DNA of 32,000 bases, from assembly GCA_049276515.1 (NCBI GenBank), contig JBASWO010000070.1, forward strand, positions 1 through 32,000, given 5' to 3'. Of the stretch, positions 18,381-18,449 are shown piece by piece. The notes below the pieces were generated by a model. That model was not told the DNA's origin. It saw only the letters and a list, made by a program, of their open reading frames with translations, and made no database searches. The position numbers and the translations under genes were made by a program. Positions within the stretch are counted from its first letter, which is position 1, and each line of letters begins with the position of its first letter. This DNA comes from Alphaproteobacteria bacterium (GTDB taxonomy: Bacteria > Pseudomonadota > Alphaproteobacteria > UBA9219).

Positions 18381-18402
18381 TCCACTTTTTGTGCAGTTGC
18401 AC

Positions 18403-18418
18403 TGTGATCAATGTCACA
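18403..18418. promoter_or_regulatory. Perfect CRP-type palindrome TGTGA-TCAATG-TCACA (site 1)
   Basis: Read directly from the sequence: both 5-nt arms match the CRP/GlxR-class consensus TGTGA-N6-TCACA exactly. The site lies 23 nt after the gene B stop. Confidence 0.6.
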
Positions 18419-18433
18419 AAAGTTTGATGTGCT

Positions 18434-18449
18434 TGTGATATCCCTCACA
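18434..18449. promoter_or_regulatory. Perfect CRP-type palindrome TGTGA-TATCCC-TCACA (site 2)
   Basis: Read directly from the sequence. Its centre is 31 bp from the site 1 centre, about three helical turns, and about 116 bp upstream of the gene C ATG. Confidence 0.6.

Follow-up and report, generated by a model that had tools for sequence, protein, structure and literature searches.

Two palindromes lie in the 177-bp spacer between the stop codon of gene B (18378-18380) and the start codon of gene C (ATG, 18558), and the question raised by this locus was whether they form an operator and, if so, what kind of regulator would control gene C through it. The window referred to below is the whole 32-kb stretch of DNA that was analysed, and all positions are those of the window. 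The genes and sites concerned were the following:

16319-16783: gene A (WAO98_04260)
16869-18380, + strand: gene B (WAO98_04265; 503 aa), ending 11 bp before the dyad described below
18403-18418, no strand assigned: site 1, TGTGATCAATGTCACA, a perfect TGTGA-N6-TCACA, centred at 18410.5, 147.5 bp 5' of the gene C ATG
18434-18449, no strand assigned: site 2, TGTGATATCCCTCACA, a perfect TGTGA-N6-TCACA, centred at 18441.5, 116.5 bp 5' of the gene C ATG
18558-19814, + strand: gene C (418 aa), the presumed target, from a small uncharacterised alphaproteobacterial family

Both 16-mers were found where a sequence-only reading of this DNA had placed them, and its remark that the intergenic regions held no other perfect copy was found to extend to the entire window on both strands. 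The window contained two perfect matches compared with a mean of 0.05 in dinucleotide-preserving shuffles, and none of the 100 shuffles reached two or more. The base frequencies of the window gave an expectation of 0.034 sites, in agreement with the earlier estimate of 0.03, and a second site no more than ±100 bp away had a joint chance of approximately 7e-6. With 0.05 sites expected and so low a joint chance, the pair is non-random, as had been argued. The pair very probably represents a real operator to which a protein would bind.

Beyond the pair itself, no copy of TGTGA-N6-TCACA with one mismatch was found in the window, and copies with up to two mismatches numbered 20, the two perfect sites counted, against 12.7 expected, which is barely over background. 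With no other site of at most one mismatch and with two-mismatch copies near background, there was no sign of a regulon within the window. In the comparison DNA (2.2 Mb of loci, mostly Alphaproteobacteria), there was one other perfect copy, and 17 copies had at most one mismatch. A dispersed repeat, MITE or REP element was also sought in the window and the 2.2 Mb of loci, and the spacer matched only itself and a Logan contig of the same strain (L081). Positions 1-19 of that contig, which carries an identical copy of gene C, are the Nextera transposase adapter AGATGTGTATAAGAGACAG, an assembly artefact.

A distance of 31 bp separates the centres of the two sites, which makes 2.95 helical turns if one turn takes 10.5 bp, and sites 1 and 2 therefore lie on the same helical face, a proposal of the sequence-only reading that is arithmetically true. 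All four half-sites are GTGA/TCAC, which is the core of CRP-type sites such as those of CAP, CgrA, GlxR and Vfr and not the FNR/FixK-type TTGA, and the left half of each site matches the CAP consensus TGTGAT. The choice between GTGA and TTGA discriminates CRP from FNR/FixK recognition helices, and FNR/FixK/Dnr boxes (TTGAT-N4-ATCAA) are the commonest Crp/Fnr sites in Alphaproteobacteria. The window sites share the superfamily geometry, the 5-bp half-sites and the TGA-N6-TCA core with those boxes, but the discriminating base is G, not T, in all four half-sites, and so an FNR- or FixK-type recognition helix is not expected.

TGTGA-N6-TCACA is the core of the CAP site, in which residues R180, E181 and R185 of the recognition helix contact TGTGA (PMC10187061; PMC5449483). 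The pair resembles sites at E. coli CAP class II and tandem (class III) promoters in that all 10 core positions are identical, the left halves read TGTGAT, and two sites occupy one face. It differs in its outer flanks, which read CAC...AAA and GCT...AAG and lack the A/T-rich AAA...TTT of the 22-bp E. coli CAP consensus, and in its host, an uncultured alphaproteobacterium without a known cAMP-CRP system. The AAA/TTT outer flanks are peculiar to E. coli CAP and weak among other CRP homologues. A taxonomically closer precedent comes from the alphaproteobacterium Rhodospirillum centenum, whose cGMP-responsive CRP, CgrA, footprints TGTGAAGCAGTTCACA at its own operon (PMC4681086). This DNase-footprinted site is a perfect 16-bp TGTGA-N6-TCACA (PMC4681086, PMC10187061), and the neighbouring targets of CgrA include hypothetical proteins. 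However, the CgrA site is single and not tandem, the genes linked to it are those for guanylate cyclase and CgrA, neither of which was seen in the window, and the window half-sites read TGTGAT in place of TGTGAA; sites 1 and 2 are 11/16 and 10/16 identical to TGTGAAGCAGTTCACA. Clr of Sinorhizobium meliloti, also an alphaproteobacterial cNMP receptor of the CRP family, has a palindrome approximately 70 bp before the start codon of a gene of unknown function, and its sites read TGTT-N8-AACA or HGTYHC-N4-GRWACA (PMC4222275). Unlike in the window sites, the fourth base of TGTGA (G) is free to vary in Clr sites, and these need C6/G11, which the window sites (TGTGAT...GTCACA and TGTGAT...CTCACA) do not have.

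Gene C, the presumed target, was placed among its relatives. The reading frame allows no start further upstream, the N-terminus aligns with those of homologues, and the ATG is preceded by a strong Shine-Dalgarno sequence (AAGGAGGTGA, 18545-18554). Gene C had been called an orphan, which does not strictly apply: a HMMER search of 1.84 billion representatives found 8 remote relatives of similar length (23-31% identity) that align end to end, and the family as a whole spans 22-31% identity and approximately 380-425 aa. A word-indexed search recovered only gene C itself. An AlphaFold (AF2) model built with the family alignment was confident (pLDDT 82.9, pTM 0.77), and this model had no significant Foldseek match in the PDB or among viral structures in BFVD; sequence searches with gene C against Pfam, NCBIfam, PADLOC, PHROGs and the PDB returned no match. 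Gene C (+) and trpS (-) converge and share 35 bp at their 3' ends (19780-19814), without a terminator between them. In another contig (L095, 1278-3641), the gene C homologue P0006 lies divergently beside secE-nusG, close to the ribosomal-protein cluster that also neighbours gene C in the window, a hint that this neighbourhood is ancestral.

The contigs encoding gene C relatives were fetched and their upstream regions compared. In contig L087, TGTGAAGCTGTTCACT lies upstream of the homologue P0003 (27% identity with gene C), with its centre 77.5 bp from the ATG, and TGTGAACCGGTTCACT lies upstream of the next gene. That next gene codes for a divergent paralogue within the gene C family, shorter at its N-terminus, for which hhalign gave E = 3e-5 across 238 columns. 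Both palindromes are of the type TGTGAA-N4-TTCACT and lie inside a 36-bp block, CCGATCAAAyTGTGAAsCkGTTCACTATTAACCATA, of which 33/36 positions are identical between the two copies; outside this block, the rest of the spacers is dissimilar and the proteins have diverged. The Poisson chance of two sites with at most one mismatch in this 5-kb contig is approximately 6e-4 at the background rate. The L087 site is also 14/16 identical to the CgrA site. The retention of the block ahead of two paralogues is independent evidence for a TGTGA-N6-TCAC palindrome as a selected cis-element ahead of this gene family.

This evidence also bears on the view that the pair is a functionless relic, left by a local inverted or direct duplication or brought in by horizontal transfer to a host that lacks the cognate regulator. 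Duplication would account for the flanks that the two units have in common in both orientations, the region is specific to the lineage and has varied recently, and no regulator gene was found within the window. However, sites 1 and 2 are identical at only 11/16 positions, with all 10 specified positions kept while the 6-bp spacers and the flanks differ, and selection on half-sites would be expected to leave such a pattern; the diverged L087 paralogues moreover conserve a similar element. We consider a relic highly improbable.

The L087 sites also weigh on which protein family would bind. Rex of Staphylococcus aureus binds TTGTGAAW4TTCACAA, a motif first noticed as TGTGAn6TCACA (PMC2883068). 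A Rex-type operator pair, by which the redox-sensing repressor would hold gene C off until the NADH/NAD+ ratio rises, would have the same palindrome geometry and core as the window sites, and the outer T/A of the Rex box (TTGTGA/TCACAA) is found in 3/4 of their half-sites. Of the positions in the Rex consensus, 13/14 are matched by TTGTGAAgctgTTCACTA and 12/14 by CTGTGAAccggTTCACTA, the two L087 sites, which do have its A at half-site position 6. In the window, by contrast, this conserved A is found in 0/4 half-sites, which read T, C, T and G. Rex is typically found in Gram-positives, Thermus, Thermotoga and some Deltaproteobacteria, and Alphaproteobacteria seldom have it; its typical targets are fermentation and respiration genes, among which gene C does not belong, and no Rex gene lies within the window. 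A Rex operator is accordingly very unlikely here.

The sequence-only reading had attributed the sites to the Crp class. The CRP-type GTGA core, the L087 block and the CgrA precedent favour this attribution, but the motif is not diagnostic, as TGTGA-N6-TCACA alone cannot name the regulator family when Rex binds the same palindrome (PMC2883068). The window itself, searched with Pfam and, for Crp, by tblastn with E. coli CRP, contained no Crp/Fnr, Rex or cyclase gene. Crp/Fnr proteins are ubiquitous in Alphaproteobacteria. On balance, the protein would more plausibly be of the CRP type than Rex or a member of another family, and we give an even chance to the reading in which the pair is a tandem operator of a dimeric CRP/CgrA-type regulator controlling gene C, most likely by tandem-site activation. 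Activation is somewhat favoured over repression, and control by a cyclic-nucleotide ligand may be conjectured.

Upstream elements of other relatives were different. No TGTGA-N6-TCACA-type site was found upstream of the homologues in L082-L085, L088, L090 and L095, which have different upstream elements; in L086, the upstream sequence comprised only 36 nt. A different palindrome, CTATGG-N13-15-(A/C)CATAG, is common to L082, L083/84 and L085 and lies just before the Shine-Dalgarno sequence, and it looks like a subfamily-specific operator or promoter element. Its copies, of the form CTATGGTAAAT...(A/C)CATAG, were located at 650-690 in L082, 3035-3065 in L083 and 18-48 in L085, and L095 has CTATACATAG and a second ACATAG at approximately 2320-2370. 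The homologues in L088 and L090 have TTGACA-type promoters without a CRP-type site.

The genomic setting of gene C is similarly variable. The window belongs to a 44,771-bp contig of a metagenome-assembled genome (MAG) filed at NCBI as 'Alphaproteobacteria bacterium'. The gene order in the window is nusG, a TPR protein gene (-), rplK-rplA-rplJ-rplL, a canonical terminator (16204-16241), gene A, gene B, the spacer and gene C, after which trpS, murJ and a prepilin peptidase gene follow convergently. The best match of TrpS among 185,579 reference species was only 64%, which indicates a poorly sampled lineage. In a syntenic metagenome contig (L096), rplKAJL are 73-90% identical (rplL 89%), trpS is 79.5% identical, and murJ, the prepilin peptidase gene and SLT are kept. 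Between rplL and trpS (L096 3729-6067), that contig has a DCC1-like oxidoreductase gene and an unrelated 399-aa ORF in place of genes A, B and C, and the rplL-trpS interval (16242-19780 in the window) is therefore a variable slot in which A-B-C are lineage-specific cargo.

Three further observations concern this neighbourhood and the organism. The gene rpoB does not follow rplL in the window or in L096, which is unusual for bacteria. The 505-aa TPR protein (11923-13440, - strand), with a weak glycosyltransferase-9 match at its C-terminus, is encoded between nusG and rplK on the opposite strand, and L098, L100 and L103 have homologues of it in that position (35-49% identity), so that the break in the nusG-rplK cluster is a lineage trait. 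A 219-aa protein encoded at 2066-2725 (- strand) has a VPLPA-CTERM sorting signal (TIGR03370, E = 4.6e-6), implying an exosortase-type sorting system in the organism.

The placement of A-B-C in a variable slot allows for a different or unknown palindrome-binding regulator, for example a local one (the product of gene A or B, or gene C regulating itself), whose operator would match the CRP consensus by convergence. Since L096 has unrelated genes at this position, gene C may have brought a control region of its own with it. No other sites would be expected in the window, and none were found; the CTATGG-N13-15-(A/C)CATAG palindrome of other family members suggests family-specific operators that change between lineages, and the outer arms of the element described below, GTGCAGTT and AACTGCAT, carry symmetry beyond that of a CRP site. 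However, genes A, B and C encode no detectable DNA-binding domain, and no homologues of genes A and B were found. Convergence is unlikely to produce, twice over, a perfect 10/10 match to so well known a consensus, and an alphaproteobacterial CRP, CgrA, uses exactly this TGTGA-N6-TCACA palindrome. We regard a local or otherwise different regulator as unlikely.

The spacer holds further symmetry, which could act in DNA or in RNA. The sequence-only reading had pointed to a third palindrome, GTGCA-gt-TGCAC (18391-18402), abutting site 1; it is present and does abut the site, but alone it is unremarkable, as an estimated 1.6 such 5+5 palindromes (spacers of 0-8 allowed) are expected per 177-bp spacer. 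Of more interest is its overlap with one of two complementary arms outside the sites:

18391-18398, no strand assigned: left outer arm, GTGCAGTT, overlapping the third palindrome GTGCAgtTGCAC (18391-18402)
18453-18460, no strand assigned: right outer arm, AACTGCAT, the reverse complement of GTGCAGTT with 7 Watson-Crick pairs and 1 G-T pair
18391-18460, no strand assigned: composite 70-bp imperfect dyad, GTGCAGTT-N4-site1-N15-site2-N3-AACTGCAT
18504-18580, + strand: predicted mRNA hairpin enclosing the Shine-Dalgarno sequence and start codon of gene C (-27.6 kcal/mol, z = -2.9)

The complementarity of the outer arms makes the entire element a 70-bp imperfect dyad, and a complementary 7-mer in the flanks occurred in 1.1% of shuffles. 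As RNA, the composite dyad is predicted to fold into a single long hairpin (-24.5 kcal/mol, z = -3.57), in which sites 1 and 2 pair mutually and the outer arms add 8 pairs. The element could thus act at the RNA level: it might terminate weakly or attenuate transcription after gene B, or be a processing or stability hairpin, with its CRP-like appearance incidental. The hairpin begins 11 nt past the stop of gene B, with UCACUUUUAGCUUU downstream of it. In addition, the second predicted hairpin, whose apical palindrome is TCCAATTGATTGGA (18522-18535), sequesters the Shine-Dalgarno sequence and start codon of gene C, making RNA-level control of gene C plausible in any case; according to this folding model, it could exert translational control of gene C.

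Several features of the dyad do not fit an RNA element. A mere RNA hairpin requires neither self-complementary arms nor an exact TGTGA-N6-TCACA, whereas dimer binding explains why each arm is itself palindromic. The base of the stem is A/U-rich and is followed by 4 nt before UUUU, unlike the organism's canonical terminator after rplL (16204-16241). A terminator scan found no + strand terminator-like site in 18381-18557. Rfam gave no match at its gathering threshold in the window other than two tRNAs, and none at E <= 1 in 18300-18650. The L087 elements, furthermore, are single palindromes that are unable to form such a hairpin. An RNA-level element as the explanation of the pair is quite unlikely. 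A 14-nt inverted repeat (13/14) was also noted between the 3' part of gene B (18198-18211) and a region 3' of site 2 (18468-18481); it is probably accidental, with approximately 0.3 such pairs expected by chance in a 4-kb region.

The region was also scanned for promoters. No consensus sigma-70 promoter was found in 16000-20000, which fits an activator-dependent promoter. One hexamer could provide the -10 element of such a promoter:

18468-18473, + strand: TAGCTT, candidate -10 of the gene C promoter and the sole TAnnnT hexamer in the spacer

The putative promoter would thus lie directly downstream of the sites, TAGCTT being 18 bp downstream of the right half CTCACA of site 2. With TAGCTT taken as the -10, the centre of site 2 would fall near -38.5 and that of site 1 near -69.5, close to the canonical class II and tandem positions of -41.5 and -72.5 but approximately 3 bp off them. 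As at E. coli CAP promoters, whose classes are defined elsewhere (PMC5449483), the proximal site would overlap the -35 position, and a recognisable -35 is missing, but the putative positions depart by those 3 bp from the canonical ones. A 10-mer, TTAACCATAG, occurs once in the window (16246-16255), 64-73 bp ahead of the start codon of gene A; TTATCCAT lies at 18512-18519, 39-46 bp ahead of that of gene C, and TTAACCATA follows both L087 palindromes (L087 183-191 and 1566-1574). These three may represent a common promoter element or chance; approximately 0.06 occurrences of the 10-mer are expected in the window.

In the proposed mechanism, the regulator would be a homodimeric winged-helix protein of the CRP branch of the Crp/Fnr superfamily, with a recognition helix of the R-E-x-x-x-R type, the type with which E. 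coli CAP and Rhodospirillum centenum CgrA read GTGA. A pair of dimers would sit three helical turns apart on one DNA face, and gene C would be transcribed from a weak, activator-dependent promoter directly downstream. The promoter-proximal dimer at site 2 would overlap the -35 position, and the distal dimer at site 1 would give the RNA polymerase alpha C-terminal domain a second contact. The sequence-only reading had suggested that gene C is controlled independently of genes A and B. Separate control is plausible, as no CRP-type site precedes gene A or gene B, but no canonical terminator lies between genes B and C and read-through from gene B is possible.

A broader reading would join both levels of control. 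The gene C family would be mobile, fast-evolving alphaproteobacterial cargo that carries its own palindromic control element, and in this organism the 70-bp dyad would serve as a double CRP/CgrA-type operator in DNA and as a hairpin in RNA, gating expression together with the hairpin that sequesters the Shine-Dalgarno sequence. We give this reading very little credence; if it were true, a cyclic-nucleotide signal, possibly cGMP of a dormancy type, would be linked to a new protein family.

The pair of sites presents a clean, testable case of a familiar kind of operator and not a new mechanism, and its interest lies mainly in the target family and in the poorly sampled lineage. If a CRP/CgrA-type regulator does bind, the sites would offer a handle on how cyclic nucleotides signal in an alphaproteobacterial lineage that is uncultured and branches deeply, and they would mark a small uncharacterised family, with a confident predicted fold that is unmatched so far, as signal-controlled.
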